Positions 14,318-41,583 of a DNA stretch of 59,034 bases are shown here, piece after piece. The stretch spans positions 1-59,034 of the forward strand of contig JBGPZT010000003.1 of NCBI GenBank assembly GCA_041493915.1, given 5' to 3'. Position numbers and translations under genes: made by a program. Under the pieces are notes generated by a model that saw only the letters and a list, made by a program, of their open reading frames with translations, did not search any database and was not told the DNA's origin. Source of the stretch: Candidatus Limnocylindria bacterium. GTDB lineage: Bacteria; Chloroflexota; Limnocylindria; P2-11E. Numbering within the stretch: the first letter of the stretch is position 1; each line of letters starts with the position of its first letter.

Positions 14318-14959
14318 CTACCTGCCCAGGCTACGCATGAGCTGGTCTCCGACGCTTTGAAGCAGGGAGCCGACCGAACGCGTGCGTTGGCCCGCGTCCA
14401 CCAGCTGATCGGCACCACTGCGCAGCAGCGCTGCGTCCGCAGCTGTGATGTCCGTCTCGCTCACGCGCGCCAGCTCCTCCATAGCCAGCCCGTGCTCGCG
14501 CATCGCCTGTCCGTGCGTCACGAGTCCATCGCCTTCCGCGACCAGCCCATCGCCGACGCTGTGGATGAAACTGAGGTCCGAACGCACGGTGCTCCCGGGA
14601 TACGCACCGAGCAGTCGAGCCTGGCTGTCGATGAGTCTCGCTGTCGTCTCGAGGCGTGACGCGTCGGCGATCATCTGGCGGGCGTCGCTCGTCCAGTGGT
14701 CGCGGTGCGGACTCTCCGAGCTCGTGGTCAATTGGAGGAGCTGCTCGCCTTGACTGCGCATCGTGGTCGCGTGCGCCGACATCGCGTCGCGCGTGGCTCG
14801 GAGCTCGGCCTGCGCTCCGGCGAGGGTCTCTTCCGTAGTGCGCTCGCCCAACACTGCGGCGGAAAAGAGAAGGAAGACCAGTGCGATCGCGACGCCGACC
14901 GGCACGAGGACGCGCGGCATCGCAAGCCACGACGCCCTCGGCGCGATCGCGTGGCTCAT
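14318..14959 (-). CDS. Membrane-anchored helical Met/His-containing protein
   Basis: ATG 1 nt after the cupredoxin stop; TM then helical region with MSAHATTM, HGQAMREHGLAM. Confidence 0.7.
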   Translation of the reverse strand: MSHAIAPRASWLAMPRVLVPVGVAIALVFLLFSAAVLGERTTEETLAGAQAELRATRDAMSAHATTMRSQGEQLLQLTTSSESPHRDHWTSDARQMIADASRLETTARLIDSQARLLGAYPGSTVRSDLSFIHSVGDGLVAEGDGLVTHGQAMREHGLAMEELARVSETDITAADAALLRSGADQLVDAGQRTRSVGSLLQSVGDQLMRSLGR

Positions 14960-14960
14960 G

Positions 14961-15473
14961 TCACTCGACCACGACCGTGGCTCGCATTCCGAGATCGGCG
15001 TGACCCGGCACGCTGCAGTAGGCGTCATAGCGTCCGGCCGTGAGGCCGCGCAGCCCGACCGTGTGGGTCTCACCCGCGTTGGCAACGATGTGGATGCCGA
15101 GCGCAGGCACGGTGAGGTCATGCACGACGCCGTTCGCGGCTGGGTTGACGAGGGTGAGATTCACGTCCGCGCTCTTCGATAGCCGGATCTCGTTCGGCGT
15201 GAAGCTGAAGTTCGCCACCTGCACGCGGACTTCGGTCGCACCGGGGATCGCGCTGGCGGGAGGCCCCGAGGTGCCGAAGCCCATCATGCCGGGACCCATC
15301 ATTCCCGGCCCCATGTGGCCGGCGCCCATCATGCCCGGTCCTATCTGCCACGCCGTCGACGGATCGTTGCCGAAGGCGCCGGTCGCGCCGGCGAACGCCG
15401 AGCCGGCCACGGCGAAGACGAGAAGGAGCCCCGCGATCAGCGCGGTAAGGCCAGCGATACGTTGGGCGTTCAC
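14961..15473 (-). CDS. Cupredoxin (type-1 Cu) with GPGMMG repeats
   Basis: HDL...YCSVPGHADLGM ligands; signal/TM segment. Confidence 0.9.
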   Translation of the reverse strand: MNAQRIAGLTALIAGLLLVFAVAGSAFAGATGAFGNDPSTAWQIGPGMMGAGHMGPGMMGPGMMGFGTSGPPASAIPGATEVRVQVANFSFTPNEIRLSKSADVNLTLVNPAANGVVHDLTVPALGIHIVANAGETHTVGLRGLTAGRYDAYCSVPGHADLGMRATVVVE

Positions 15474-15703
15474 GGTTTGGCTTCCGCGATCGCGGCGCGG
15501 CGGACCCGGAACTCCTCTGCGTCGATCTCGCCTCGCGCAAGCCGCTCCTCGAGGATGCGCATCGCTCCGCTTTGACTCTCGCTGCCGCGGGCCTGCGACC
15601 GGCTGAGCATGAGCACGAGCCACACGACCAGCGCGATGACGAAGACCCAGAACAGCAGCATGACGAGACCGCCGATTCCGAACGAGGAGCCGTACATCAT
15701 CAC
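15470..15703 (-). CDS. SHOCT domain membrane protein
   Basis: ILEERLARGEIDAEEF. Confidence 0.85.
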   Translation of the reverse strand: MMMYGSSFGIGGLVMLLFWVFVIALVVWLVLMLSRSQARGSESQSGAMRILEERLARGEIDAEEFRVRRAAIAEAKP

Positions 15704-15746: not shown

Positions 15747-15830
15747 CTGAGGCGTGACTTGGGGCCCGCTGGCAGAGCGCTGAGAAAGCCTTCTCAGCGC
15801 GCTTTAAGGCTCGACCAAGGGGCGCTCCAG
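15747..15830. promoter_or_regulatory. Mirror-image 4+4 MprA-box-like array in divergent promoter
   Basis: CTGAGG,CTTGGG,CTGGCA,CTGAGA -N6- TCTCAG,TTTAAG,ACCAAG,CTCCAG at 11-bp period. Confidence 0.78.
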
Positions 15831-15878: not shown

Positions 15879-16988
15879 ATGATCGGCATGGCGACCTCCG
15901 CACCGGCTCCGACGACTGTGACCGCACCTGGCAATCCCCTTGGTCGTATCTGGGACTGGTTCTCCGACCGCGCGGGCCTTGCGGCTCTGGCGTACCCCGT
16001 GCCGGCGCACGCGAACCGTCTTGGGTACACCCTCGGCGGGATCAGCTTCGTCGGCTTCCTCGTGCTCGCCCTCAGCGGTTTCTGGCTCGCGCAGTTCTAC
16101 GACCCGATGCCCGAGCACGCTCGCGGCTCGCTGGAGTTCATCCAGAACGACGCCGCGCTCGGCGCCTTCGTGCGCGGCCTCCACTTCTGGGTCGCGAACA
16201 TCGTCGTGATCACGGTCTTCCTGCACATGGTCCGCGTGTTCGCGACCGCATCGTTCAAGCGACCTCGTGAGCTGAACTGGATCTGCGGTGTTGCGCTCCT
16301 GGGCGTGACGATCGCGTTCGCTTTCACCGGCTCGGTCCTCAAGTGGGATCAGGAGGCCTGGGAGGCGCTTCAGCACAACCTCGAGGTCGCTGCGGTCCTC
16401 GGCGGGCTTGGCACGTTCTTTTCGGAGTCGTTCACCCAGGCCGTTCCGGTGCTCGCGCGCCTGTACGCCGCGCACGTGAGCATCCTCCCGCTCATCGCCA
16501 CGCTGCTCTTCGTTTCGCATTTCTTCCAGGTCAAGCACCACGGCATCTCGCCACTCCCGGCAGCGGCCGACCATGATGAGGCACCCGAGGGCAAGGTCCA
16601 GGCCTCCCAGCTCACGGCCCGCTACCTCGGGCACCTCGGGCGCATGTTCGGCTTCGGCCTTCTCATCGCCGCGATCGCAGCGGTGCTCGGTCTGATCTTC
16701 CCGGCCACGCTGGGCGAGGCGCCGGATCCGTCGATGGAGGTCACCAAGCCGCCGTTCTTCTTCTACTGGCTCTACGCCTTCGAGGACTGGTTCGGCCTCC
16801 GGGCGATCCTCTACGGCGGCGTCTCCTTCTTCGCGGTGCTGCTCCTCGTGCCGTTCGTGGATCGCTCGCCGTGGCGCAGTCTGCGCCGACGGCCTGTCTT
16901 CGCCGCGCTCGGTGGACTCGCACTCGTCGCACTCGTGGTGTTGTCGTTCATCGTCTTCTTCTCGCCGGTCGTGGAGCACCTGGAATAG
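15879..16988 (+). CDS. Cytochrome b/b6-like protein (bc-complex family), no Rieske gene nearby
   Basis: LGG..F, RGLH...LHM, FTGSVLKWDQ, AAH...SHF; four heme His. Confidence 0.9.
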   Translation: MIGMATSAPAPTTVTAPGNPLGRIWDWFSDRAGLAALAYPVPAHANRLGYTLGGISFVGFLVLALSGFWLAQFYDPMPEHARGSLEFIQNDAALGAFVRGLHFWVANIVVITVFLHMVRVFATASFKRPRELNWICGVALLGVTIAFAFTGSVLKWDQEAWEALQHNLEVAAVLGGLGTFFSESFTQAVPVLARLYAAHVSILPLIATLLFVSHFFQVKHHGISPLPAAADHDEAPEGKVQASQLTARYLGHLGRMFGFGLLIAAIAAVLGLIFPATLGEAPDPSMEVTKPPFFFYWLYAFEDWFGLRAILYGGVSFFAVLLLVPFVDRSPWRSLRRRPVFAALGGLALVALVVLSFIVFFSPVVEHLE

Positions 16989-16990
16989 CC

Positions 16991-17185
16991 GTGCGTACCG
17001 TCGCCTTCTGGCTCTGGTTCGTGGTCGCAACGGCGGCGCTCGGGCGCCTCTGGTGGACGGTCGATCATGGCGGCCTCTTCGTTCGCTTCGGTGCGGCAGA
17101 CGCGATCGCGCTCGTGGCGCTCCTCGTGTCAGGCTTCGTGTTGGCGCGCGTCGAGTACGAAACCGCGCGGGTCGGGCGGAAGTAA
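16991..17185 (+). CDS. Small 2-TM membrane protein
   Basis: Fills the operon gap exactly; hydrophobic. Confidence 0.65.
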   Translation: MRTVAFWLWFVVATAALGRLWWTVDHGGLFVRFGAADAIALVALLVSGFVLARVEYETARVGRK

Positions 17186-17836
17186 GTGGACGCGTCGGTC
17201 GCGCTCGCCAGCGCATATCTCGAGCTCAACGGCTTCTTCGTCCTTACCGAGCTGCCGGTCCAGATCGCCGACCGACAGGGCTACCGCACGGCGACGGACC
17301 TCGACGTGCTCGCGGTGCGCCTGCCGCATGCGGCGGAGCTCGTGCCCGCGGCGCGTGCCCCCGCCCACGACCTCCTGCTGGGTCAGGACTCGCTGCTCGA
17401 GACCGATCGTTGGAGGACAGAGGTGCTGATCGCCGAGGTCAAACGTGGCCGGGCGCATATCAACGAGGGCTACCACGATCCCGCGGTGCTGCGGTTCGCG
17501 CTCCGGCGGACGGGCTGCTGTCCCACGGAGATGCTCGACGCGCACGCCGCCACTCTCGCCCAGAGCGGCGCGATCGAGACCAAGAGCGCCGACGGTCATC
17601 CCTGCCGCATCCGCATCGCCTCGTTCGCCGGTCAGCCGGCGCCGCTTTCGGGTGGCGTCCTCTCGATCGGCCTCGCACATTGCATCGCCTTCATCCGCGA
17701 GCGCCTCGAGCATTACCAGCCGCAGTTGCGCGGCGCGTACTTCCGCGACCCCGTGCTGAACCTACTGGGACTCGTCGCTCTGCTATCGGCGGTGCCACAG
17801 AAGGAGAAAGAGAAGGAGAGCGTGCATGCCTCGTAA
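17186..17836 (+). CDS. Hypothetical protein with PD-(D/E)xK-like motif
   Basis: AYLELNGF..E...TDLDVLAVR...IAEVK. Confidence 0.65.
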   Translation: MDASVALASAYLELNGFFVLTELPVQIADRQGYRTATDLDVLAVRLPHAAELVPAARAPAHDLLLGQDSLLETDRWRTEVLIAEVKRGRAHINEGYHDPAVLRFALRRTGCCPTEMLDAHAATLAQSGAIETKSADGHPCRIRIASFAGQPAPLSGGVLSIGLAHCIAFIRERLEHYQPQLRGAYFRDPVLNLLGLVALLSAVPQKEKEKESVHAS

Positions 17837-18266
17837 GCAACCGCAGCGGCGTTCATCGAACCTGCGTCTCCGCATCGCCATCTTCGCGATCCTCGCCCTG
17901 GCCGTCGCGGGTGGCGCCGCTTACGCACTCTGGCCCAAGGAGCTTGCGACAGCGGACGCCGCACCCGTTGACGTGACCATGCGGATCGACATGAGCGGCT
18001 TCACGCCGCCGACGATCTCAGCGCCGGCCAATCGGCTGGTCCGTGTCCGGATCGTGAATCCCGACAGCAGCCATCACAGCGACGGCGGCGGCGTGCACGG
18101 CTTCACCATCGTGAAGCTTGGTGTCGACGCCAAAATCCAACCCGAGACGACCCAGGTCGTCACGATCCCGCCTTCTGCCGCCGGTGAGTACGCCTTCTAC
18201 TGCGACACGTGCTGCGGGGGCAAGGAAAACCCGGCGATGCAGGGCGTGTTGAAGCTCAAGGCATGA
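17826..18266 (+). CDS. Membrane-anchored cupredoxin with atypical CuA-like loop
   Basis: VHGF...FYCDTCCGGKENPAM. Confidence 0.85.
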   Translation: MPRKQPQRRSSNLRLRIAIFAILALAVAGGAAYALWPKELATADAAPVDVTMRIDMSGFTPPTISAPANRLVRVRIVNPDSSHHSDGGGVHGFTIVKLGVDAKIQPETTQVVTIPPSAAGEYAFYCDTCCGGKENPAMQGVLKLKA

Positions 18267-18970
18267 GCGGCGTCGATCTCAATCTGGCCACCGTCGTCCT
18301 CGCCGGCCTGGTCGACGGCATCAACCCCTGTGCGATCGCCGTGCTGCTCGTCTTCGTCTCCGCCACGCTCCTCGCCGTCGGCGCGACGATGGAGGGCGGG
18401 CTCGGCGAGCGCCGGCGCGCGCTCTTCAAGGGCGGCGCCGCCTATGTGACCGGCATGTTCATCACCTACCTCTTGATCGGTCTCGGCCTCATGGGCTTTG
18501 CCGGCGCGCTTCGCCAGGACCACCTCGGCACGAAGATCTTCGCCGTCGTCGCGATCGGTTGGAGCGTCCTCGCGTTGCAAGAAGCGCTACTGCCGGAGCT
18601 CGGCGAGCGGTTGCGTATGCCGCCGATGCTGCACAGCCGGGCGCAGAGTTGGGTGCAGCGCGCCTCGCTCCCGGGTCTCTTCGTTGCCGGCTCGCTCATC
18701 GGCCTCTGCACCGTGCCCTGCTCCGGGAACGTCTATCTCGCCGTGCTCGCGCTCCTGTCGAGCCGTGCCGACCTTGGACAGGCGCTTGGCTACCTCGTCA
18801 TCTACAACCTCGCCTTCGTCGTGCCGCTCATCGCGCTCCTGGGCGCTGCGGCCACGCCCGTGGCGATGCGCGCGCTCGCGCGCTGGCAGTTGCACAACCG
18901 CGCGGCACTGAAGCTCGCGCTCGGCCTGACGACGGCGCTCGTCTCGCTCGCAGCGTTGGCGGTCGTCTAA
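18263..18970 (+). CDS. CcdA/DsbD-like transmembrane thiol-disulfide transporter
   Basis: DGINPCA and LCTVPCSG; about 6 TM. Confidence 0.8.
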   Translation: MSGVDLNLATVVLAGLVDGINPCAIAVLLVFVSATLLAVGATMEGGLGERRRALFKGGAAYVTGMFITYLLIGLGLMGFAGALRQDHLGTKIFAVVAIGWSVLALQEALLPELGERLRMPPMLHSRAQSWVQRASLPGLFVAGSLIGLCTVPCSGNVYLAVLALLSSRADLGQALGYLVIYNLAFVVPLIALLGAAATPVAMRALARWQLHNRAALKLALGLTTALVSLAALAVV

Positions 18971-18974
18971 AGCG

Positions 18975-19772
18975 ATGACGGTCGACATCGATCCGGTCAT
19001 CGTCCATCTCGGTCCGTTCGCCCTCGGCTGGTACGGCTTATTCGTCGCGCTCGCCATCGGGGTCGGCATGTGGCTCGCGTTCCATGAGGCGCGCCGCAGG
19101 GGCCTGCCGATGCAACAGATGGAGTCGCTTGCGACGTGGGTCTTCGTCGGCGGCGTGGCCGGCGCGCGGGCGCTCCACGTCATCGACCGCTGGGATCTGT
19201 ACGCGGCCCAGCCACACATGATCTTTGCGATCTGGAACGGCGGGCTCGCGATCATGGGTGCCGTATTGGGTGGGACGCTCGCCGGTCTCTTCGTCGCCTG
19301 GCGGCGCGGCCTACCGGTGCGCGCGATCTCCGATGCCGCCGCGCCCGGTGTGATCCTCGGTCAGGCTATCGGGCGCTTCGCGTGTCTCTTCACCGGAGAT
19401 GCCGTGGGCCGCGCGACTACCGGTATCGGGATCACCTACCTGAACCCGGGCGCGATGGTCCCACAGCTCGGCGTGGCGTACGAGCCGGTGTTCGTGTATG
19501 AGATGGCCTGGGACCTCGGGGTCTTCGCCGTGCTCTGGTGGCTGCGCCCGCGGCTGCGCGTCGAGGGGCAGCTCTTCGCCGTCTACCTCGCGCTCTACGC
19601 GATCGGGAAGTTCGCGCTCACCTTCCGTCGGGCCGAGACGGTCTGGATCGCCGGTCTCCAGGAGGCGCAGCTCCTCTCCCTCGCCGCCCTGGGCCTCGCT
19701 GCGCTCTGGGGATGGTCGAGTCTGCGCGCGCACACGGTCGCCGGCCTCTCCGCGCAGAGGACGCGGTCATGA
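18975..19772 (+). CDS. lgt: Prolipoprotein diacylglyceryl transferase
   Basis: IDPV..LGP..WYG, GAR, IWNGGL, GQAIGR; some canonical residues are altered. Confidence 0.8.
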   Translation: MTVDIDPVIVHLGPFALGWYGLFVALAIGVGMWLAFHEARRRGLPMQQMESLATWVFVGGVAGARALHVIDRWDLYAAQPHMIFAIWNGGLAIMGAVLGGTLAGLFVAWRRGLPVRAISDAAAPGVILGQAIGRFACLFTGDAVGRATTGIGITYLNPGAMVPQLGVAYEPVFVYEMAWDLGVFAVLWWLRPRLRVEGQLFAVYLALYAIGKFALTFRRAETVWIAGLQEAQLLSLAALGLAALWGWSSLRAHTVAGLSAQRTRS

Positions 19773-20413
19773 CTGGCGGCACGACCATCGACAGGCGAGC
19801 ACCGAGTAGTGCCACGCGCAGCGTGGCACGCGTCTACGACCGTATCGCCTTCCTGTACGACCTGTACGACGCACCAATGAACGCGCTCGGCGGTCGGAAG
19901 CGGCGACGCCAGCTGATCGCGCGTGCCCATGGCAAGGTCCTTGAGGTCGGCATCGGCACTGGCGCGAATCTCGATCTCTATCCCGCCGGCATCGACCTCG
20001 TCGGCATCGACGTCTCGCCCCGGATGCTCGCGAAGGCGCGTCGTCGTGCCTCGCGGCTCGGCGCCAACGTCGCGCTGCGCGAGGCGGACATCGAGCGTCT
20101 GCCGTTCCCCGACGCCACCTTCGACACCGTCGTTGCCACGTGCGTCTTCTGCTCGGTGGCCGACCCTGCCCGGGGTCTCGACGAGGTTCGTCGAATCCTC
20201 AAAGCAGGCGGATCCGCCCTACTGCTCGAGCATGTCCGTCCCGAGAATCCCGTGATGGGGCGGCTCGCGGACCTCATCAGCCCGCTCGTCAAACGGCTCG
20301 TCGGACCAGAGTTGAATCGCAACACGGAAGAGACCGTCGCGCGCTCCGGGCTACGCGTCCTCGAGGTCCGCCGCGAGACGATCTGGCGCGAGATCGTCGC
20401 CACCCGCGACTGA
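19769..20413 (+). CDS. Class I SAM-dependent methyltransferase
   Basis: VLEVGIGTG, FDTV, FCSV, LLEHV. Confidence 0.9.
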   Translation: MTGGTTIDRRAPSSATRSVARVYDRIAFLYDLYDAPMNALGGRKRRRQLIARAHGKVLEVGIGTGANLDLYPAGIDLVGIDVSPRMLAKARRRASRLGANVALREADIERLPFPDATFDTVVATCVFCSVADPARGLDEVRRILKAGGSALLLEHVRPENPVMGRLADLISPLVKRLVGPELNRNTEETVARSGLRVLEVRRETIWREIVATRD

Positions 20414-20438: not shown

Positions 20439-20477
20439 TCTCAGCCGATGCTCAGAGCGTCCCAATCTTCGCGCCAG
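20439..20477 (+). promoter_or_regulatory. MprA-box-like array
   Basis: TCTCAG,GCTCAG,CCCAAT,CGCCAG at 11-bp period, 8 bp before the GTG. Confidence 0.65.
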
Positions 20478-23623: not shown

Positions 23624-24420
23624 CCTTTGAACATGGCCCCGAGAGACACCCGGACGCGGCCTCCGAGGGGCAAACACCGGTATCGTCTTCGGTGGTGGCC
23701 ACCGACACCGCGCAGGCGCCCGGCGCGGGTCCGGCCCGTCCCGGTCGGCTGCTCGTCGTCGACGACGACGAGAACGTCACGAACATGCTGCGCCGCGCGC
23801 TCTCGTTCGAGGGCTACGCGGTCGCGACCGCGCGCGACGGTGCCGCCGCGCTGAAGAAGACGCTCGAGTTCGCTCCCGACCTCGTGGTGCTGGACATCAT
23901 GATGCCGGGCATCGACGGCGTGGAGGTCGCCCGGCGTCTGCGCGCGGGCGATCCGCAGCTCGCGATCCTCATGCTCACCGCCAAGGACGCGGCTGCCGAC
24001 CAGATCGTCGGCCTCGACGCCGGCGCCGACGACTACCTCGTGAAACCGTTCACGCTCGAGGTGCTCACCGCACGCATCCGCGCGTTGCTGCGGCGCAAGG
24101 AGCCGAGTGAGGTCGAAGTGCTGCGCTTCGTCGACCTTGCGCTCGATACCGGCACGCGCAGCGCGCGGCGCGGCACGCGCGAGATCGCGCTCACCACCAC
24201 CGAGTACGAGCTCCTGCTCCAGTTCCTGCGCCACCCGCGCCAGGTGCTCGAGAAGGAGCAGCTCACCGAGAAGGTCTGGGGCTACGACTTCGGTGGCAAC
24301 TACAACGTGCTCGAGGTGTACGTCCGCTACCTCCGCCAGAAGCTGGAGGCCGCCGGCGAGCCGCGGCTCATCCACACGCTGCGCGGCGCCGGATACGTCC
24401 TGCGCGAGCCCGCGACCTAG
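23620..24420 (+). CDS. OmpR-family response regulator, MprA-like
   Basis: LRRALSFEGY, LDAGADDY, VWGYDF..NVLEVYVRYLRQKLE..GEPRLIHTLRGAGYVLRE; true start may be downstream. Confidence 0.9.
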   Translation: MTFEHGPERHPDAASEGQTPVSSSVVATDTAQAPGAGPARPGRLLVVDDDENVTNMLRRALSFEGYAVATARDGAAALKKTLEFAPDLVVLDIMMPGIDGVEVARRLRAGDPQLAILMLTAKDAAADQIVGLDAGADDYLVKPFTLEVLTARIRALLRRKEPSEVEVLRFVDLALDTGTRSARRGTREIALTTTEYELLLQFLRHPRQVLEKEQLTEKVWGYDFGGNYNVLEVYVRYLRQKLEAAGEPRLIHTLRGAGYVLREPAT

Positions 24421-24432
24421 GACGCCGGCGGC

Positions 24433-25827
24433 GTGAGTATCCGCCTGCGGCTCGCGCTCTGGTACGGAGCGCTTCTCGCGTTCGTGCTCGGCGCCACGCT
24501 CGCCGTCGCGTTCGTCATCCACACCGGGTCCCATGAGAGCGATGTCGATTCGTCGCTGCGCACGTCCTGGGAACACGCGGCCTCAGAGCTCACCGCCCGT
24601 GGCACCGATCCGTCGCACCTCGCGACCCTCACCAAGCCGGCGCAAGCAGCGAGCTCGCCGACAGCGATCTGGCTGGTCATCCTGGGCGACACCAACGCGC
24701 TTGGCGGCGGGGACACCGAGGATCCGCTCCTCTCGCAGTTCCGGCCCGCGTCTGCGAGTGATGGGCTTCAGGACTCACGACTTGCGAACGGCCGCGTCCG
24801 CGCGTACGCCGCGAACCTGCCGGGTGTCCAAGGTACGCGGCTCGTCGTGGCCGCATCGATGTCGGCATTCGACGCGTCGCTCGGCAATCTCGGCCTGATC
24901 CTCGCCCTCATGGGCCTCGCGGGCATCGCGTTCGCGGTGACCGGCGGGTGGGCGATCTCCGCCGGCGCCTTGCGGCCGATCGCAAGGATGACCGAGACGG
25001 CGCGCGCGATCGCGGTCTCCCGCGGCTTCGCCCGGCGGATCGAGGTCCGCGACGAGGGCCGCGACGAGTTGAGCGAGCTCGGGCGCACGTTCAATTCCAT
25101 GCTCGCTAGCCTCGACGATGCGTATCGGCGCCAGCAGCGCTTCGTCGCTGATGTCTCGCACGAGCTGCGCACACCGCTCACTGCGTTGCAGGGCGACCTC
25201 GAGCTCCTCGCGCGCGGTCAGCTTCCCCCGGACGAGGCCCAGGCGACGCTCGCCGAGGCGCGTCAGGAGACACGCCGTCTCGCGCGGCTGGTCGATGATC
25301 TGCTCGTGCTCGCGCGGGCGGACTCTGGTCCGCAGCCCTTCATTGGCAAGCCTGTGCCGCTCGACGAGGTCCTGATGGAAGTGTTCCGCGAGCTGCGCGG
25401 CCAGGCCGGATCGCGTTTGCGCGTCGTCGACCTCGAAGCAAGCGTCGTGGTGGGGGAGCGTGATCGGCTCAAGCAGCTGGTCCTGATCCTCACCGACAAT
25501 GCGCTGTCGTATACGCCGGGCGATGGGGCGGTGCTGCTCTCGCTGCGCCGCGACGGCAGCGAGACGGTGCTCGCGGTCGAGGACGAAGGGATCGGCATCA
25601 GCTCGGAGACTGCGGCGCGCGCCTTTGAGCGCTTCTACCGCGGCGAGGAGGCGCAACGTCTCGATCCCGCGGGAACGGGTCTTGGGCTCTCCATCGCGAA
25701 GTGGATCGTCGAGCGCCACGGCGGCGCCATCACCCTCGCGCAACGCGCTTCCCGCGGGACCGTCGTGACGGTACGTCTGCCGGCCGTCGTGCAGCTGGAG
25801 TCAAAGGCGGACGCGACCGCGGCCTGA
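24433..25827 (+). CDS. HAMP sensor histidine kinase
   Basis: SHELRTPL, DNA, DEGIGI, GTGLGL. Confidence 0.92.
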   Translation: MSIRLRLALWYGALLAFVLGATLAVAFVIHTGSHESDVDSSLRTSWEHAASELTARGTDPSHLATLTKPAQAASSPTAIWLVILGDTNALGGGDTEDPLLSQFRPASASDGLQDSRLANGRVRAYAANLPGVQGTRLVVAASMSAFDASLGNLGLILALMGLAGIAFAVTGGWAISAGALRPIARMTETARAIAVSRGFARRIEVRDEGRDELSELGRTFNSMLASLDDAYRRQQRFVADVSHELRTPLTALQGDLELLARGQLPPDEAQATLAEARQETRRLARLVDDLLVLARADSGPQPFIGKPVPLDEVLMEVFRELRGQAGSRLRVVDLEASVVVGERDRLKQLVLILTDNALSYTPGDGAVLLSLRRDGSETVLAVEDEGIGISSETAARAFERFYRGEEAQRLDPAGTGLGLSIAKWIVERHGGAITLAQRASRGTVVTVRLPAVVQLESKADATAA

Positions 25828-26999: not shown

Positions 27000-29468
27000 A
27001 TGACTAGCGCCGCCGCACTCTCGGCGAAGGTCACGCTGGCGCTCACCGAGCTGAGCTGCGCCTCCGAGGCGCAGAGCCTCGAGCGCGTCCTCCGACCCGT
27101 GCGCGGGGCGCGCAGCGTCGTCGTCAACCCCGTCACGGCGCGCGCCACGATCGACGCCGACCTCACCGACCTCGACCTCGTTTCGCTCACCACGCTCGTG
27201 CGTGAGATGGGCGTGCAGGTAACGCGCGTCGATGTGGATTTGCGCGCGAACGGGGACGCCGACACCGTCGCCCGCTTGGCTCGCGGTCTCGCCCCCGCGG
27301 TCGCGGAGGTCCGGACGGATCGCGCCCGTGGCCGACTGCACGTCGAGGCGCTCGGCGATAGCGCGAGCGTCGCGGCTCTGGCGCGCGTGTTGCACACGGA
27401 TCGCGTTGCGCAGCCAGAGAAGGAGGAGGCCAGTTTCGACGCCACGGCGAGCGAGAGCGAGCGCGAGTACCGGCGCCTCATGCGCAAGTGGTGGTTCGCG
27501 GCCGCGGTCGCCGCACCGACGATGATCCTCTCGTATCCATGGCTCTTCCCGCTCCTCCGCGACCTCTTCCCGCGAGGGAGCGAGCAACTCCACCACCTGT
27601 GGGTCGCGATGGGCATCGCGAGCCTCGCGGTCCTCGCGTACTCGGGTAGCCAGTTCTTCGTCGGTCTCGTCGACAGCCTCAAGCACCGCTCGGCGAACAT
27701 GCACACGCTCATCGCGATCGGGACGGGCACGGCATGGCTCTACTCGACGGTCGCCCTCCTCGCGCCTCAGCTCTTCCCCTCCGGGGATTTCACCGATGTG
27801 TACTACGACGTGACCGCGGTCGTGACCGCGCTCGTCGTCCTTGGTATGGCCATGGAGATCAAGGCGCGCGGGCGCACCAGCGAGGCGATCAAGAAACTCA
27901 TCGGCCTGCAGCCGCGCACCGCGCGGGTCATCCGGGATGGCAACGAGACCACCGTGCCGGTCGCCGAGGTGCAGGTCGCCGAGCTCGTCGTCGTCCGTCC
28001 CGGCGAGCGGATCCCGCTCGACGGCGCGCTCGTGTCCGGGTCGTCCGCGATCGACGAGTCGATGATCACCGGCGAGTCGATCCCCGTGGACAAGGCCTTC
28101 GGCGACGAGGTCATCGGCGCGACGATGAACACGCATGGCTCATTCACTTTCCGTGTCACGAAGGTCGGAGCGGACACCGCGCTCGCCAACATCGTGCGCC
28201 TCGTCCAGGACGCGCAGGCCACAAAGGTCCCGATCCAGCGGATCGTCGACCAGGTGAGCGCGTACTTCACGCCGATCGTGGTCATGCTCGCGCTGGCCGG
28301 CTTCGTCGTCTGGTACGACTTCGGCCCCGCGCCCGCCTTCGCCTACGCGACGATCGTCATGGTCACGACCCTCATCATCGCCTGCCCCTGCGCGCTTGGG
28401 ATGGCGACGCCGATGTCGCTCACCACCGGCATCGGCAAGGCCGCCGAGCACGGTGTGCTCATCCGCTCCGGCGGGGCGCTCCAGGGCGCACAGCGCCTGC
28501 AGACGATCGTGCTCGACAAGACCGGCACGATCACCAAGGGCGAACCCGCGCTCACCGACGTGGTGGCGCTCGTTCCGTTCACCGAGGAGCAGCTTCTGCA
28601 GCTCGTCGCCAGCGCCGAGCATGGCTCCGAGCATCCCCTTGGCGCGGCGATCGTGAAGGGCGCGCTCGCACGCAAGGTCGCGCTGCGTCCGATCTCGGAC
28701 TTCACCTCGGTCGTCGGCGGTGGCGTCGTCGCGATCGCCGATGGACACCTCGTGCGGGTGGGGAACGAGCGCTTCCAGCGCGAGGCCGGCGTCGACCTCG
28801 GCGGTCTGCCGGGTCCGTGGGCCGTGCTCGCCGAGGACGGCAAGACGCCGATGTACGTGAGCATCGACGGTCGGCCGGCGGGACTCGTGGCCGTCGCGGA
28901 CACCGTGAAGGAAGACTCCGTGCGCGCGATCAAGCGTCTGCGTGAGCTTGGCCTCGAGGTCGTGATGCTCACCGGCGACAACGAGCGCACCGCGAGGGCA
29001 ATCGCCCGCCAGGTCGGCGTCGATCGGGTACGCGCCGAGGTCCTGCCCGGCGACAAGGCGATGGAGGTGCGCAAGCTCCAGCTGGAGGGCAAGCGCGTCG
29101 GCATGGTCGGCGACGGCACCAACGATGCGCCCGCTCTCACGCAGGCCGATGTCGGCTTCGCTATCGGTACTGGGACCGACGTGGCGATCGAGGCTGGCGA
29201 TGTGACGCTCATCGGTGGGAGCCTGCGGGGCGTTGTGCTCGCCATCGAGGTCTCACGGGCGACGATGCGCAACGTCTATCAGAATCTCTTTGGCGCCTTT
29301 GTCTATAACTCGCTGGGCCTGCCCGTTGCGCTCGGCGTGCTGTATCCCTTCTTCGGGATCCTGCTCTCGCCGATCCTCGCCGCTGCCGCGATGAGCTTCA
29401 GCTCGGTGACGGTGATCACGAACGCGAACCGGCTGCGCAAATTTACGTCCAGGGAGGTCATGACATGA
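27000..29468 (+). CDS. copA: Copper-translocating P1B-1 ATPase
   Basis: TGES, CPC, DKTGT, SEHPL, GDGTND, YN, MSFSS; degenerate HMA (CASE). Confidence 0.92.
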
Positions 29469-29842
29469 CGCTCGATCAGATCCTCGTCACCCTCGTCGGC
29501 GCGCTCGCCGTCGCCGGCGTGGGTGCGTTCTTCCTCCTGCCCAAGAGCGAGGAGACTCGCGCCGTGCTCGGGTCATCCGGCTTGCAGGAAGCGATGATCC
29601 TGGTGAAGGGCGGCTACACACCGGACCTCATCGTCGCCGACGCCGGCGTCCCAATTCGCCTCACCTTCCTACGCACCGAGTCGAGCGCGTGCTCCGAGCG
29701 CGTGGTCTTCGCAGACTTCCACAAGAGCGCCGAGCTTCCCGAAAACCAGAACGTTGCGCTTGATCTGCCGGCCGCGAAGGTCGGCGAATACATCTTCCAG
29801 TGCGGCATGGGGATGCTCCGCGGAAAGCTCGTCGTCCGGTGA
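29465..29842 (+). CDS. CupA-like cupredoxin
   Basis: [19 protein letters not shown]. Confidence 0.88.
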
Positions 29843-30516
29843 AGGCCTGTGCGTGTCGCGAGCCGCATCCGCTCAAGCGCGTGGTGCTCACGGGCGGGCC
29901 GGGCGCCGGCAAGACTGGCGTGCTCGAGCTTATCCGCCAGTCGCTGTGCGAGCACGTAATGGTGCTGCCAGAGTCGGCAGGCATCGTCTTTGGAGGCGGC
30001 TTTCCCCGCCGAGGCGACGATCCTTGTCGCCGCGCCGCGCAACGTGCGATCTTCTATGTCCAGCGCGAGCTCGAGGCTGCCGCGGGCAGCGCGAATCCGG
30101 CCGTCGAGCTATGCGACCGCGGCACCGTGGACGGCGCCGCCTACTGGCCCGGCCCCGACACGCTCTGGTCCTCGGTCGGCACGACGCACGTGGAGCAGCT
30201 CGCGCGTTATGACTCTGTCATACATCTGCGCCCGCCCACCTCCGCCGAGGGTTATGACCAGCGCAATCCGCTGCGTAGCGAATCCGCGTCCGAGGCCGGG
30301 CGGATCGACGCGCGCGTCGCGCTCGAATGGAACGGGCACCCCCGTATCTTCGTCGTCCCCGCATCGGTTGACTTCCTGATCAAGGCAGCGCGGACGTTGG
30401 AGATCCTTCGCAACGAGCTCCCGGAATGCTGCCGCGGCCATGCGTCCATGCTTCCCGGCGAGCGGGCCCCGCACGCGGGCGCGGGCGAGTCGTACGCGAC
30501 CGAGGCGCGGTCGTGA
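29839..30516 (+). CDS. P-loop NTPase (NadR/AAA_28-like)
   Basis: VLTGGPGAGKT, LCDRGTVD. Confidence 0.8.
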   Translation: MKACACREPHPLKRVVLTGGPGAGKTGVLELIRQSLCEHVMVLPESAGIVFGGGFPRRGDDPCRRAAQRAIFYVQRELEAAAGSANPAVELCDRGTVDGAAYWPGPDTLWSSVGTTHVEQLARYDSVIHLRPPTSAEGYDQRNPLRSESASEAGRIDARVALEWNGHPRIFVVPASVDFLIKAARTLEILRNELPECCRGHASMLPGERAPHAGAGESYATEARS

Positions 30517-30674
30517 TTGGCGTCCCGTCGCGTCACTCGCCACGAACCTCGCAGGCGCAGCGTCCGCTCACTGCCGACCGTGTCGCAAAGCGGCTGAAGC
30601 TCGCGGAGCTCAGGCTGGTACTCCACGCCTGGGGCATGGGCGACAAGCATTCGTTCGAGGCGCGGGGGACGCAG

Positions 30675-30767
30675 ATGTGGTGGTCGGTCGCGCTGTACTG
30701 GATCTGCTGGCTCGCGCTTGCCGGTCTCGCCCTCTACGCGATCGCGCGCGCACTGAACGGAGGCTAG
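30675..30767 (+). CDS. 30-aa single-TM peptide
   Basis: GGGGGA RBS; stop 2 nt before the next ATG. Confidence 0.45.
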   Translation: MWWSVALYWICWLALAGLALYAIARALNGG

Positions 30768-30769
30768 GC

Positions 30770-31219
30770 ATGTTGTTGCGCAGGCTCGCGATCACTCTCG
30801 CGCTCACGCTGCTCACCGCGGCTTGCGCCGCGCCGGTCGCATCGGCGCCCGCCTCCTCGTCGGCGGCGGCCGCGAAGAGCGACTCGGATCTGGGCGAGCA
30901 GACCAGTGAAGCCGCGGCCGTGGCGATCGTCGTGAGCTGGCTCGGCGCCGATGTGCCCTCCGCGCGCGTCGTGATGGACACGCATTCGGTCGATCTCGAC
31001 GGCTTCGACCTCAAGGAGCTCGCGCGCCTGCGCCTGGACGGTGGCACGTGGGTGGCGCCCAGTCTGTGGGACGCGCCCAAGGGCGGCCACCACCGCACCG
31101 GCATGCTCACCTTCGCCTCGCTCAGCCGCGCCAATTTCGACGCGGCGAAGGTCGTCGAGCTCGAGGTCCGCGACGTTGCCCTTCCCTCCCGGCTGCTGCG
31201 ATGGGAGCGCGCGCGATGA
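30770..31219 (+). CDS. Lipoprotein with THSVDL/GGHH motifs
   Basis: Lipobox LTAAC; GGAGG RBS. Confidence 0.8.
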   Translation: MLLRRLAITLALTLLTAACAAPVASAPASSSAAAAKSDSDLGEQTSEAAAVAIVVSWLGADVPSARVVMDTHSVDLDGFDLKELARLRLDGGTWVAPSLWDAPKGGHHRTGMLTFASLSRANFDAAKVVELEVRDVALPSRLLRWERAR

Positions 31220-31692
31220 CGCGTCGCATCGCGCTCTCCATCGCAGCCGGCTTCGCGGGCGCGCTCGCGCTCGTCGGCTTCTACCTCGCGATCGTCACCT
31301 GGGCACAGGGTCCCCAGCACGCGCTCGAGCTCCTCTGGAGCGATCGCCTCTTCGTCGGGCTCATCAGCGCTGGGTTCGGCACCCAGGTCGGGCTCTTCGT
31401 GTATCTGCGTCTCTTACAGCGCGCGATGGCGCGTGAGTCCGTCGCGCTTGCCGGGGCGGGCACGGCGACCTCGAGCGTGTCGATGATCGCGTGCTGCGCG
31501 CATCACCTCGCCGACGTGCTCCCGATCGTCGGTCTCTCGGGCCTCGCGCTGTTCCTGGTGGAGTTCCGCACCCCGCTCATGCTGCTCGGCATCGCGACGA
31601 ATCTCGTTGGCATCGCCATCATGCTCCGCCAGCTGCGGCGGATCCACGGCGGCTACCATTTCGTTTCCCGACGCGGCGCTATGGCGGTCTAG
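31216..31692 (+). CDS. Membrane protein with MIACCAHH motif
   Basis: Overlapping ATGA start; about 4 TM. Confidence 0.8.
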   Translation: MTRRIALSIAAGFAGALALVGFYLAIVTWAQGPQHALELLWSDRLFVGLISAGFGTQVGLFVYLRLLQRAMARESVALAGAGTATSSVSMIACCAHHLADVLPIVGLSGLALFLVEFRTPLMLLGIATNLVGIAIMLRQLRRIHGGYHFVSRRGAMAV

Positions 31693-31693
31693 G

Positions 31694-31906
31694 ATGCTCC
31701 AAGTCGGGACGTATCGGACCGTCCGGGGTGAGCTCCTGCATTACCGCATTGACGCGGCGGGAAGACCGTGTTGCGAGGTCGAGCGCATCGACGGCTCGTT
31801 GCGCGAGGGCTGTGAGATCCGCGACGCCGACGTGCTCCTGTCCGACGATCCCACCTGGCCGTGGCGCGATGCCGAACCGATCCCTTCGCTCGTGGTCATC
31901 GATTGA
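31694..31906 (+). CDS. Small hypothetical protein
   Basis: Operon-spaced ATG; 70 aa. Confidence 0.55.
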   Translation: MLQVGTYRTVRGELLHYRIDAAGRPCCEVERIDGSLREGCEIRDADVLLSDDPTWPWRDAEPIPSLVVID

Positions 31907-31938
31907 GCGGCACCGCGTCGAAGGACGTGCGGCGTACG

Positions 31939-32757
31939 ATGGTCGATCGCATGGGTGGCCTGGCCGGGCTCACAACGATCGTGCTGCTGCGGCCACGCTG
32001 GGACGACTGTGATGCCAACGGACACCTAAACAACGCGATGTATCTCGCGCTCGTGCGTAGCGCCACCGACGAGGGCCTCGTCGCGCTCGGCGCTCCCGAT
32101 TGGCTCGCGGGCGCCCGGCTCGCTGAAATGGAGCTCGCGTATCGCGAGCCGGTACGGGCCGGGGACGAGATGGGCGTCCGGCTTCAGGTTCGAGCGGCGG
32201 ACGCCGATGCGCTCGTCCTCACGTACGAATTCGCGGTATCGGCTCGCATCTGCGCTCATGCGACGGCGCGCTGGGCCCGCATCGGAGCACCCCGGCCCGC
32301 CACCCTCGAGGACCATGGCGGCGATGCACGCGGCGAACCGTTCGTCATGCGTCACCGCGTGCGCAGCTACGAGATCGGCGCGGATGGCGAGGCGAGGCCC
32401 GCGGTGATCCTCCAGTGGTTCGAGCACGCGATCTTCCAGGCCGCCGAAGCCGTGGGCTGGACGCGGAAGCGGATGCGTGAGGCCGACTTCGTCACGCTCC
32501 AGGTCGGGCACCACCTCGTGCTCGGCGCGCCCGCGCGGGAGGGCGACGAGCTTCGGATCGAGAGCCGGCTCGACGAGGTCCGGCGTGTCTCGGGAGTCTG
32601 GCGTCACGAGATCCGCCGGGCCGACGGCGAGATCGTCGCCGTCGACTACTCACGGGGCGCGTTCCTCGATTCTCAGGGGCTCATCCGACCCGCGCCGGAA
32701 GGGATGCTCGGAGCGCTTCTCGCCGGACCCGCTGCGATCGCGAGCGCCGTCCCGTGA
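31939..32757 (+). CDS. Double hot-dog acyl-thioesterase
   Basis: [16 protein letters not shown]; second domain RVRSYEI. Confidence 0.8.
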
Positions 32758-35150: not shown

Positions 35151-36336
35151 CGCGCTCGCCGGAGTCGCGCGGCCGAGCCGCGAGTCGCTCGCGCGCGGAG
35201 TTCTCGCCCTCCTCGTGCGCGCACTGCCCACGGACTCCGGCGTCGAGCTGGCGCTCGCGGGCGACCGGCCGACGAGAGACACGCTGGCCCGCCTCGTCTT
35301 CTCGTCGCCCGGCGCGCTTGGCCGCGCGCTCTGGCCGCCGACGCCGGATGCGATGGGCGACGCGTACCTGCGCGGCGACTTCGACATCGAGGGCGACATC
35401 GCCGCGCTGGCCCGCGCCGGAACGCCCTTCGATCTCGGCCGGCTCGCGTGGAGCGAGCGTGCTGCGCTGCTACGCGATGTCTTGCGGCTGCGGAGGGACG
35501 CGGGCGCGGCGACAGCGCTGACGCGCTGCGCGCGCCTGCGCGGACGCCGCCACTCTGTCGCGCGCGACCGCACCGCGGTGCGCTTCCATTACGACGTGGG
35601 GAACGCCTTCTACACGCTGTGGCTCGATCGACGTATGACGTACTCCTGCGCCTACTTTGGCTCGCCCGAGACCGAACTCGCCGACGCGCAGGAGGCCAAG
35701 CTCGACCTCGTCTGCCGCAAGCTCGCGCTTCGTCCGGGACAGCGGCTCCTCGACATCGGCTGCGGCTGGGGCTCGCTCATCGTCTATGCGGCGCAGCGTT
35801 ACGGCGTCGAGGCGGTGGGCGTCACACTCAGCGACAAGCAGGCGCGCGAGGCCGATGCGCAGGCGCGCGAGGCCCGCGTCGCCGACCGCGTGCGTGCGTT
35901 CGTACTCGATTACCGCGAGCTCGCGCGGCTCGGCTCCTTCGACGCCGTCGCGTCGATCGGCATGTTCGAGCACGTGGGGAGTGAGAAGCTCCGCGACTAC
36001 TTCGCCGCCTCCTACCGCGCGCTCCGCCCCGGCGGCCTCTTCCTGAATCACGGCATCGCCGCCGTGGAGCGATCACGAGGGCCCCTGCCCAGGGTCCGTC
36101 TCAGCGTCGATTTCGTCGGCAGGCACGTGTTTCCCGACGGCGAGCTCGTGACGATCGCCGAAGCGACGGATCAAGCGCGCAGCTCAGGGTTTGCGGTGGT
36201 GTACCGAACGTGGCGCCTATACATGGCGGGAGCGCGCGTGGGTTTCGAGCGTGGCGAGCGTGACGTGGCGCAGATGCTTCTGGAGCGACCCTCTGCGTGC
36301 GCACTGGCCTCGCGTCCGCTTCTGCCGTGGTGGTGA
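35137..36336 (+). CDS. cfa: Cyclopropane fatty acyl phospholipid synthase-like methyltransferase, probable internal deletion
   Basis: [31 protein letters not shown]; E..HY..TL segment absent. Confidence 0.75.
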
Positions 36337-36349
36337 GGCTCGCTTCGCG

Positions 36350-36562
36350 ATGACGTTCAACTTCGACGTGGGCAGCCTTCTTCTCGGTGTCGCGGTCGTG
36401 CTGCTCGTGTTCCTCGTGATCGACCTGTTGGTCGCCGGCGGCGGCATGAGCATGGGGATGATGGGCGGCGTCGCGGGCATGATGGCCACGCCCTGGGGCT
36501 GGCTGCTACTCCTGCTAGTCGTCCTCGTCGTGTTTCTCGTCGCCACCGCCGCGGGCCGCTAG
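36350..36562 (+). CDS. Small 2-TM protein with Met-rich loop
   Basis: GGGMSMGMMGGVAGMM between hydrophobic helices. Confidence 0.65.
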   Translation: MTFNFDVGSLLLGVAVVLLVFLVIDLLVAGGGMSMGMMGGVAGMMATPWGWLLLLLVVLVVFLVATAAGR

Positions 36563-36569
36563 AGACGGC

Positions 36570-39169: not shown

Positions 39170-39430
39170 CCTCACGGGGATGCCGGACTACAACCTGTTG
39201 AGCTTGCGCATGGTGTTGTCGATCGCGGAGATGTGATCGGCGTCGAACGCATGCCGGGGGCCAGACGCGTAGGCGAGCCCGCCGAGTCCGATGAGGCCGG
39301 ATCGTCGCGGCCGGCACGCCCTCGGAATGTCAAAGGGGCGCGGAGAGTGAAATGGTCGGCCTGCGACTTGCCGACCGAGGCTCCCGCGCCCCTTTCGCTA
39401 GCGACCTCCGGAGGCGTGTCAGGGGCTGCC

Positions 39431-39718: not shown

Positions 39719-39757
39719 CGTGCCATCTCTTTTCCCTTCCCACAGTGCGCGTGCTCA

Positions 39758-39796
39758 CTGAGAGCGTTCTGAGGCGACGCGGTATCCGACCTGAGA
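39758..39796 (-). promoter_or_regulatory. MprA-box-like array
   Basis: Minus strand TCTCAG,(ATACCG),CCTCAG,TCTCAG at 11-bp period. Confidence 0.65.
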
Positions 39797-39807
39797 ATCG
39801 CGAGGCG

Positions 39808-39957: not shown

Positions 39958-39973
39958 CGCGCACACCTCCTCC

Positions 39974-41579: not shown

Positions 41580-41583
41580 GGAC

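Follow-up and report, generated by a model that had tools for sequence, protein, structure and literature searches.

The window analyzed here, a 59,034-nt stretch from the genome of a sediment-dwelling Candidatus Limnocylindria bacterium, contains a compact seven-gene operon headed by a cytochrome b gene, flanked by a divergently transcribed unit and followed by a large copper island. The region comprises the following features:

14318..15700, - strand: divergent unit encoding a SHOCT protein, a Met-rich cupredoxin and a Met/His-containing helical protein
15750..15830, no strand: divergent promoter built of direct repeats (TCTCAG/CAAG/CCAG) with an 11-bp period, 4-5 copies pointing in each direction
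15879..16988, + strand: cytochrome b of the Glu/His clade, a seven-helix, two-heme, b6 plus subunit IV-like fusion
16353..16376, + strand: cd1 helix of the cytochrome b (E159-x-x-E162-A-x-x-H166), replacing M154/W157/V161 of PetB; predicted metal ligands
16737..16784, + strand: ef loop and helix, with E287, K290, P291-P-F-F294 (Qo motif) and E302, which replaces a conserved Leu
16977..16979, + strand: C-terminal His367, on the outer side, present in 160/161 close homologs
16991..17185, + strand: 64-aa membrane peptide
17186..17836, + strand: PD-(D/E)xK-like protein
17826..18266, + strand: membrane-anchored CuA-like cupredoxin
18263..18970, + strand: six-helix CcdA-like protein
18975..19772, + strand: extra Lgt paralog
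19769..20413, + strand: Class I SAM methyltransferase
20439..20477, + strand: next copy of the repeat box
23692..25827, + strand: OmpR-family response regulator and histidine kinase, which travel with the cupredoxin-CcdA-Lgt cassette
27000..49158, + strand: wider copper island with three P1B ATPases, CupA-like cupredoxins, a CsoR-like repressor and YHS proteins

All seven open reading frames proposed in the first-pass annotation are in place on the forward strand, with successive gaps of 2, 0, -11, -4, 4 and -4 nt that bear out the tight coupling described there, and their domain assignments are backed by Pfam or NCBIfam. The cytochrome b reading frame probably starts at ATG 15888, which a purine-rich stretch precedes by 8 nt. 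The second gene, described as a two-TM peptide, does encode a small membrane peptide, only one of whose two membrane segments exceeds the hydropathy cut-off, and the PD-(D/E)xK-like label finds support in a DLD...IAEVK motif and an Atlas lead (<0.9), with no Pfam match. Since contigs from one further sequencing run cover positions 15078-21873, in three near-identical pieces that leave 64 nt within the cupredoxin gene uncovered, the gene order is no assembly artefact.

The promoter repeat yields 15 matches in the window against 4.65 expected, and an alignment of 16 intergenic regions shows it conserved in most of them, whether or not a cytochrome b gene is present. It is likely bound by the OmpR-family regulator of the island, and its next copy points to 20413 as the likely end of the transcription unit. 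The repeat box presumably resembles the mycobacterial MprA box, and a literature search for a link between the two returned none. Relatives of the divergently encoded Met/His-containing helical protein sit directly upstream of cytochrome b in three related loci (L007, L009 and L011). As first reported, no Rieske or c1 gene is adjacent, and a profile search returned no PF00355 match on the contig (C12). A monoheme cytochrome c encoded 1.8 kb away on the opposite strand (13463-14104) was considered as a c1 substitute and set aside, as it is present in 0/38 related loci.

The three P1B ATPases of the downstream island, two with CPC and one with CPD motifs, all carry YN and MxxSS, and the 2.8-Mb host genome encodes four such genes in all. 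P1B ATPase genes occur in 15/38 cytochrome b loci and next to each of the three plasmid copies; copper islands are the setting of the clade.

The cytochrome b shares the fold of its counterparts in Rieske/cytochrome b complexes (bc1, b6f, bcc), with Z scores of about 28-30 and an rmsd of 3-4 Å over 315-343 residues. It also shares their seven helices, arranged as b6 plus subunit IV with an N-terminal half closest to b6, and their four heme histidines, which had been recognized at the outset and align with those of PetB (H102, H116, H199 and H214). It differs from them in lacking the Qo acid, the Qi acid or His and the heme c_n Cys, in its charged cd1/ef face and in belonging to a supernumerary, mobile clade that is usually without a Rieske or c-type partner. 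Its NCBIfam scores all fall below the cut-offs (actinobacterial QcrB, 82.7/500; b6, PRK03735, 152/325; SoxC, 105.2/740; ExtP, 169.8/290), the b6 and ExtP models being shorter than the protein and the SoxC and QcrB models longer. The best score is thus that of ExtP (NF040969), a cytochrome b homolog linked in its name to the reduction of metal(loid)s through a selenite/tellurite reduction operon, although that short model lacks the subunit IV part and the window protein reaches 169.8 bits against a cut-off of 290; ExtP was not found in PMC8981825.

Replacement of the Qo-site PEWY by PPFF, the main argument of the first-pass annotation against a bc complex, is confirmed by alignment (P291-P-F-F294), but it carries little weight by itself because PPW or PLW motifs are present in many bc-type cytochromes b, going by the available parts of PMC4122944 and PMC5600118 (Fig. 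S1), and PPW is the commonest form in the clade. The same parts of these sources show that SoxC/SoxN (PPWF) and Acidithiobacillus (PPWY) have Pro where the Qo Glu would stand. These variants belong to quinol-oxidizing complexes, and their likeness to the window protein was assessed over the Qo motif. The PMC5600118 alignment file yielded no archaeal rows, and the available parts of PMC9162462 and PMC4122944 no Qo residue numbers.

A stronger sign than PPFF, absent from the first-pass annotation, is the rebuilt cd1/ef face. According to section 7.1 of PMC7908018, the cd1 and ef elements close off a Qo pocket that is highly hydrophobic and provide the docking surface for the Rieske head. In the window protein the hydrophobic cap (Trp, Val/Ile, Leu) is absent and E162, H166 and E302 stand in its place, the E159, E162, H166 and E302 columns corresponding in PetB to M154, W157, V161 and the Leu of the ef helix. 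We compared 102 clade rows with 53 other cytochromes b in one alignment, with smaller denominators at some columns. E159 is present in 96/102 clade rows vs 2/53 others, E/D162 in 102/102 vs 0/53, H166 in 97/102 vs 0/53 and E302 in 90/93 vs 0/51, and all four occur together in 86/93 clade rows; E287 and H367 are further gains. Conversely, the Qo acid is found in 2/96 clade rows vs 48/51 others, the Qi acid in 1/101 vs 46/51 and the Tyr147 equivalent in 0/102 vs 42/53. The Qi region of the window protein reads K219, M256 and TLGG, with neither the His/Asp pair nor the CxGG of heme c_n, while P291, F/W293 and Y299 are retained in the clade. Judged from these substitutions, Glu159, Glu/Asp162, His166, Glu302 and the C-terminal His probably make up a metal site that receives electrons from the two hemes. 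A set of three Glu and two His is no less suited to Fe or Mn than to copper, and could alternatively line a proton path.

The clade is separate from QcrB/PetB with support of 1.0 (FastTree) and 99 (SH-aLRT), in a tree whose outgroup is without archaeal SoxC/SoxN and cyanobacterial b6 sequences. Its members, found in Chloroflexota, Deinococcota, Bacillota and on Actinomycetota plasmids, are patchily distributed (24/301 class genomes and 12/401 phylum genomes), and their hosts include sediment and anaerobic lineages. Because the host genome encodes a separate Rieske/b6 operon, the window cytochrome b is a spare paralog; a second PF00033 gene is present in the host and in 15/15 tested genomes. 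Together with the copper-island setting, this sustains the original view that the protein is no ordinary bc complex subunit. Extra paralogs that accompany a normal complex and whose function is obscure are also described for the cyanobacterial subfamily K cytochromes b, some with WDQE, in the available part of PMC5600118; these differ in being short, in missing one heme His and in keeping the cd1 Trp (WDQEGYW), and no copper link is reported in that part of the source.

The protein might instead be one half of a modified Rieske/cytochrome b pair, with a borrowed or dedicated Rieske protein, in which the Glu/His residues bind the Rieske His ligands or move protons. The occurrence of PPW/PLW in bc complexes and the retention of P291, F/W293 and Y299 agree with such a pair, as do a free-standing second Rieske gene in the host (on contig C40) and bc-type Rieske genes within 8 kb of cytochrome b in 5/38 related loci (L015, L016, L018, L022, where it lies 14 nt upstream, and L028). 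In G022 another lies in the same island, 11 kb away, flanked by a CupA-like gene and a P1B ATPase gene. The homologs do not group with QcrB, but some do sit near Rieske genes, which partly agrees with one of the refuting observations named in the first-pass annotation. Motif matches at L023 and L032 proved not to be Rieske and were dropped. Rieske genes are absent within 8 kb from 33/38 loci and 24/24 class-sample copies (six genomes being common to both samples), and none adjoins the three plasmid copies. Genomes with the clade gene have a second Rieske gene no more often (5/9) than those without it (43/80), and this comparison lends no support to the free host gene as a dedicated trans partner. 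Given also the charged residues at hydrophobic cap positions and the loss of both quinone-site acids, we consider a Rieske pair unlikely.

The 64-aa membrane peptide is the most widespread small partner of cytochrome b, extending to Streptomyces and Meiothermus loci. Outside the window's subclade, this peptide and an anchored Ig-like protein are the fixed partners (18/18). The latter has His or Asp as the first residue after the signal site in 25/25 complete copies, and is fused to cytochrome b in P0130, P0131, P0138 and P0188 with the signal site kept. Other clade cytochromes b end in His-rich tails, and in some fused members the C-terminal region is Met-rich. No redox cofactor motif was detected in the partners of cytochrome b. 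Fold search of the Ig-like protein returned generic Ig-like sandwiches only (best Z 10.2, many ties), with neither CopC nor YcnI among the best 50 rows, below which they could still occur. By sequence it had no significant match in the PDB and hit unnamed Atlas clusters. In the window's subclade the Ig-like partner has been lost, no gene for it adjoining cytochrome b in 7/7 copies.

The cupredoxin, CcdA and Lgt genes are best described as a second, commoner cassette (cupredoxin-CcdA-Lgt) under the same promoter. The cupredoxin is atypical, as had been proposed: it shares the His91-Cys126-x3-Cys130-Met138 frame of CuA domains (NosZ, ba3 oxidase subunit II) but departs from the CuA consensus (His...Cys-x3-Cys-x3-His-x2-Met) in that the second His is replaced, and has an extra Cys129 and His84, both invariant in 27/27 sequences; M56, H91, C126, C130 and M138 are invariant as well. 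The name 'Cytochrome B' on B. anthracis cupredoxin entries was disregarded as a mere label. Immediately behind the cupredoxin in every locus examined, the CcdA-like protein has the six helices and two Pro-Cys motifs of CcdA (Pro-Cys23 and Pro-Cys153, plus Cys149), here without an adjoining extracytoplasmic thioredoxin-like partner in the window operon or the compared family loci. The Lgt paralog scores 137.1 against the TIGR00544 cut-off of 118.9, and two more Lgt genes lie on contig C233 of the host. It has Met at the His of the HGG motif, which the other two host proteins also lack; this His corresponds to the functional His103 of E. coli Lgt. Co-transcription of a second lgt with copper-resistance genes has precedent in the lgt2 copper operon of Listeria/Enterococcus, as described in part of PMC8275575, from which the window differs in having no lit2. 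The PD-(D/E)xK-like gene is a passenger, found in 4/20 family loci, two of them without cytochrome b, and the methyltransferase, reduced to a 41-aa remnant in the closest locus, is not conserved at its operon position; both genes come and go between loci.

The first-pass annotation had read all seven genes as one dedicated chain, and this part of its interpretation is not supported. The full order is found only in the window among the loci compared, cupredoxin-CcdA lies behind the same promoter without cytochrome b, and with other genes in its slot, in 15/20 informative family loci, and elsewhere cytochrome b has its Ig-like partner. A narrower form, limited to the window's subclade, has cytochrome b passing electrons to the CuA-like cupredoxin while CcdA resets its thiols. 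Such a link fits this subclade because cytochrome b heads a cupredoxin-CcdA operon in 5/7 copies and the Ig-like partner is lost; moreover, both proteins face outward, the cupredoxin is a CuA relative, and cupredoxin-CcdA lies within 8 kb of cytochrome b in 12/38 loci. Against it, besides the 15/20 loci, the two are about 9 kb apart in G166 and on opposite strands in L018 and L037, and the cupredoxin metal-loop residues are identical whether or not the locus contains cytochrome b. Prediction of a complex of cytochrome b, cupredoxin and two hemes scored 0.00, giving no verdict and weighing neither way. We regard this chain as rather improbable; the cassettes probably both act in one copper response, with no obligate chain between them.

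The reading we favor, at slightly below even confidence, is that a mobile, spare cytochrome b paralog and its membrane peptide would act as a one-way wire reducing copper outside the membrane, directly or via bound iron, without a Q-cycle. More tentatively, the clade may be a stand-alone copper reductase fed by quinol or from the cytoplasm: a bc-lineage branch without Rieske or Q-cycle, with its own Glu/His metal center in the old quinol pocket, spread on metal-resistance islands across phyla and fitted with interchangeable outer antennae. These could be the Ig-like domain with its free N-terminal His/Asp, a helical bundle, a His-rich tail or, here, perhaps the CuA-like cupredoxin. In the favored reading, E159, E/D162, H166, E302 and H367 would cluster and bind metal next to the outer heme. 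Electrons from menaquinol at an altered site or from a cytoplasmic reductant would run from inner to outer heme and on to the metal, a direction favored by the membrane potential. The product would be Cu(I), loading the cupredoxins of the island, and CcdA would likely maintain the CuA-like protein's three Cys in reduced form, making Cu(I) binding possible. An efflux island would not be expected to produce Cu(I), and Rieske genes, in the five loci and the G022 island, occur nearby more often than chance suggests; both observations sit uneasily with copper reduction.

Reverse flow would suit such an island: the site would oxidize Cu(I) exported by the ATPases and pass electrons to the quinone pool, as an oxygen-independent stand-in for multicopper oxidase. 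The constant company of Cu(I)-type ATPases and the sediment and anaerobic hosts are in keeping with this, but the Qi acid is lost and multicopper oxidases are present anyway in 6/38 loci. Passing electrons from Cu(I) to menaquinone is energetically unfavorable, and inward flow opposes the membrane potential; we judge this scheme improbable. Least probable of all is that the protein performs no electron transfer to metal and is a heme- and metal-binding sensor, buffer or scaffold hitch-hiking in copper islands. Its patchy distribution, variable partners and His-rich tails would fit, but the four heme His and heme-packing Gly/Arg are conserved, across several phyla, as strongly as in working complexes.

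FRD/MsrQ, cytochrome b561/Dcytb and the cupric reductase CcoG are membrane metal and periplasmic reductases. By analogy, the copper-reducing wire proposed here would likely work as they do, moving electrons across the membrane to an outer acceptor, although they belong to unrelated protein families; PF01794 (FRD) had no match in the window cytochrome b at E 0.01.

Clade genes are annotated as bc subunits, and complex III counts in genomes would therefore be inflated. Cultured hosts exist in Meiothermus hypogaeus, Kouleothrix and Streptomyces mirabilis P16B-1 (plasmid pI), the last with a transformation system and a plasmid-cured strain (PMC9195940). Cytochrome b of the bc lineage is regarded as inseparably bound up with the Rieske protein and with the Q-cycle. 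With its hemes intact and its Qo face rebuilt, this clade would be a natural experiment on what a Qo pocket can become, and a candidate for a missing step in bacterial copper handling, namely control of the balance between Cu(II) and Cu(I) on the outer side of monoderm membranes.

The seven tightly coupled open reading frames described by the first-pass annotation (15879–20413, plus strand) were all present, encoding in order a cytochrome b, a peptide, a PD-(D/E)xK-like (nuclease-like) protein, a cupredoxin, a CcdA-like protein, Lgt and a methyltransferase. Family scans assigned the cytochrome b to PF00033 and weakly to PF00032, and recognized a Cupredoxin_1 domain, a DsbD/CcdA-type membrane protein, Lgt and a class I methyltransferase, with no Pfam match for the peptide or the 216-aa protein. 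The AlphaFold model of the cytochrome b (pLDDT 89.4, pTM 0.87) contains seven membrane helices, and its fold matches were exclusively cytochromes b of bc1/b6f complexes. The loci of its nearest relatives carry the label Candidatus Limnocylindria, and three near-identical contigs from one further sequencing run cover the operon. The reported lack of an adjacent Rieske gene also held, with zero Rieske matches on the contig. The host's second cytochrome b lies on another contig (L046:4161–9549, G000:C153), where b6 and subunit IV are separate genes of one operon that also encodes a Rieske protein, a large Fe-S oxidoreductase and a dihaem cytochrome c; it has an APWY motif and, as in subfamily G of PMC5600118, a GltD-like Fe-S flavoprotein upstream.

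To place the window protein, we performed phylogenetic inference on the cytochromes b of 38 genome loci, three plasmid copies and, from the top 150 hits of a profile search, those proteins that are full-length (rows under 300 aa excluded), 155 rows in all. In this tree, which has an outgroup without archaeal SoxC/SoxN and cyanobacterial b6, the window protein falls inside a 102-row clade with support of 1.0 and a long stem, separate from PetB, QcrB, NarC and PEWY/PDWY b-c fusions; the same split received 99 SH-aLRT in a 50-row IQ-TREE run. The named members belong to Chloroflexota, Actinomycetota, Deinococcota, Bipolaricaulia, Bacillota, Deltaproteobacteria and Parvarchaeota. The distribution is patchy: at a cut-off of 1e-80, 24 of 301 class genomes have the gene, in 25 copies, and it occurs in 12 of 401 phylum genomes. 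Here as in the other surveys the counts are not independent, many genomes being related and incomplete. At least one additional PF00033 gene was found in all 15 locus genomes tested. Two genomes have two clade copies per island (L013:8872–10167; L003:4744–5841 and 9266–10375), and one of these double copies bears a long N-terminal extension.

The haem-binding histidines (H102, H116, H199 and H214 in the window protein, whose numbering is used here) are kept in 99/99, 100/101, 100/102 and 98/101 clade rows. The Qo Glu/Asp, by contrast, occurs in 2/96 clade rows versus 48/51 other cytochromes b, the Qi Asp/Glu in 1/101 versus 46/51, and the Tyr147 equivalent in 0/102 versus 42/53; a haem c_n Cys is absent, with TLGG at that place. 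The motif that stands in place of PEWY varies within the clade, being PPFF (P291–F294) in the window and most commonly PPW, and PPW/PLW are listed for many bc-type cytochromes b in the retrieved portions of PMC4122944 and PMC5600118 (Fig. S1 rows). What distinguishes the clade is a set of residues gained on the outer face: E159 (96/102 clade rows versus 2/53 others), E/D162 (102/102 versus 0/53), H166 (97/102 versus 0/53), E302 (90/93 versus 0/51) and E287 (81/99 versus 6/51), together with a C-terminal His in 160/161 close homologues and 87/93 clade rows. The four core residues, E159, E/D162, H166 and E302, occur jointly in 86 of 93 rows. Alignment to Sinorhizobium PetB places these four at cd1 positions M154, W157 and V161 and at an ef-helix Leu. 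The Qo pocket is described as highly hydrophobic, capped by cd1, cd2 and ef, and docked there by the Rieske head (PMC7908018, part of the article). Judged by sequence, the E-x-x-E-x-x-x-H pattern along a single helix face and a further Glu and His close to it would form a putative carboxylate/His metal site, with a ligand set that would suit iron as well as copper.

Part of the evidence runs against the interpretation given at the end. A bc-type Rieske gene lies within 8 kb in 5/38 loci, 14 nt upstream of the cytochrome in one of them, and within the same island 11 kb away in genome G022; none was found within 8 kb of the 24 other copies in the class sample, which has six genomes in common with the 38-locus set. 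About half of the family (51/92 genomes) carries a second bc-type Rieske gene, present in 5/9 genomes with the clade gene versus 43/80 without it once G151, G235 and G106 are left out. These three genomes, flagged as unpublished, may be among the no-match genomes of the clade-gene, cupredoxin and Ig-like surveys, and none of the remaining conclusions depends on them. The host's copy is free-standing (L107:1305–1835, G000:C40), beside adenosine-deaminase-like and molybdoenzyme genes.

The commonest neighbour of the cytochrome is a secreted, C-terminally anchored Ig-like protein (27/38 loci) that is absent from the window. It occurs in 18 class-sample genomes (E better than 1e-20; 12 weaker matches, all in other genomes, were set aside), all 18 of which have the clade gene, with the Ig-like gene directly behind it in 17. 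In all 25 complete copies the residue that follows the signal site is His or Asp, and four proteins fuse the Ig-like domain to the cytochrome with an internal A-x-A-H/D site retained; five other clade proteins are fused to a helical bundle, and three have a His-rich tail. Actinobacterial and Thermaceae loci encode a helical anchored protein upstream in its stead. Most loci, Streptomyces included, encode a membrane peptide of 60–90 aa just after the cytochrome; it is absent or decayed in L003, L004, L006–L009, L011 and L012.

The proposal that all seven window genes form one Rieske-less quinol-to-copper chain was not borne out. The operon comprises two cassettes: the cytochrome b has been placed in front of a cupredoxin-CcdA-Lgt cassette that is distinct from it, a position that it occupies in 5 of 20 family loci, window counted (21 family genomes with the cupredoxin; 17 further contexts examined, one incomplete). 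In 14 loci the same divergent SHOCT gene lies 171–1080 nt from the cupredoxin (2123 nt in the window), a spacing too short for the 1110-nt cytochrome b gene; one more family locus has no cytochrome b upstream of the cupredoxin. In five of those 14 loci the cytochrome b slot is taken by a small secreted peptide with Cys, His and Met. This peptide, likely a small copper-binding protein, has about 70 aa, a Cys and the motif G-x-H-V-A-x-M-A-R-x-G-H-L-G-x-x-M-N-P-G-M-H (L091:3907–4122, L093, L094, L095 and L096; also L048:8906–9121), and one like it precedes the Streptomyces clade copy. The nuclease-like gene occurs in 4/20 family loci, twice without the cytochrome b, and an intact methyltransferase follows Lgt in the window only. 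A short stretch between promoter and cupredoxin in another locus (L089:6349–6593) resembles the 5' part of the nuclease-like gene, which points to loss of the cassette by deletion in this lineage.

The CcdA-like gene lies directly 3' of the cupredoxin in every family locus read, and the seven potential ligands of the CuA-like cupredoxin are invariant in 27/27 sequences. This CxxCC cupredoxin and CcdA-like pair (17826–18970 in the window) forms a module without a name of its own whose two genes are strictly paired throughout Chloroflexota, and it lacks a thioredoxin partner. A second lgt inside copper operons is already known (PMC8275575, in part); the host has two further tandem Lgt genes (L108:3147–4774, G000:C233), neither with the HGG-motif His. 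Cupredoxin and CcdA both lie within 8 kb of the cytochrome b in 12/38 loci, and directly behind it (peptide or nuclease optional) in 4/38. The Ig-like gene is missing from all seven copies of the window's subclade, so that this partner is lost in just the subclade placed before the cupredoxin, which keeps alive the proposed cytochrome b-cupredoxin link, limited to that subclade.

The promoter contains 11-bp-period direct repeats in both orientations, which are conserved whether or not the cytochrome b is present. The repeat motif has 15 matches in the window versus 4.65 expected, a number reached in 0/100 shuffles. The boxes are intergenic and precede other island genes; one of them, at 20439, marks the likely end of the unit at 20413. 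Further boxes at 12605, 26126, 26796, 39758, 40648, 44374 and 46291 likely outline the regulon of the island's two-component system. An OmpR-family two-component pair travels with the cupredoxin cassette and is likely to read the repeat box.

The surrounding island is rich in copper genes, with three P1B ATPases (YN and MxxSS motifs), CupA-like proteins and a CsoR-like repressor in the window. P1B ATPases were found in 15/38 loci (480 kb in total) versus four in the 2.8-Mb host genome, and adjoin the plasmid clade copies of Pseudarthrobacter defluvii E5, Streptomyces sp. F2 and S. mirabilis P16B-1. The ATPase at 32754–35150 has CPD, not CPC, in its sixth helix, with YN and MxxSS present; the CPD variant recurs in L017, L018, L024, L026, L036 and L037, often adjoining a CPC-type copy. 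A SHOCT and Met-rich cupredoxin pair has four genome copies (window 11905–12511, 14961–15700 and 40801–41579; G000:C247), the first split into two ORFs at 11905–12275. At 50582–52453 a cupredoxin domain is joined to a NosD-like beta-helix; NosZ was not seen in the window. An iron permease fusion of FTR1 and an FtrD-like part (L022:11193–12488) lies downstream of consecutive Rieske, cytochrome b, Ig and Lgt genes, a hint that the relevant metal in some loci may be iron and not copper.

We found no paper on the clade in the open-access literature; prior notice in subscription papers, which were outside the scope of the search, is possible. In the parts of the sources retrieved, no subfamily described in PMC5600118 matches the clade, its alignment file has WDQE three times, always ahead of a canonical cd1 that contains Trp, and the plasmid's cytochrome b gene goes unmentioned in the main text of PMC9195940. 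With slightly less than even confidence, the likeliest role of this cytochrome b variant with a rebuilt Qo face is that of a haem wire leading to a metal site on the outside, which would serve copper handling. The observation that drew attention to the operon is real, and the protein is of more interest than the operon.
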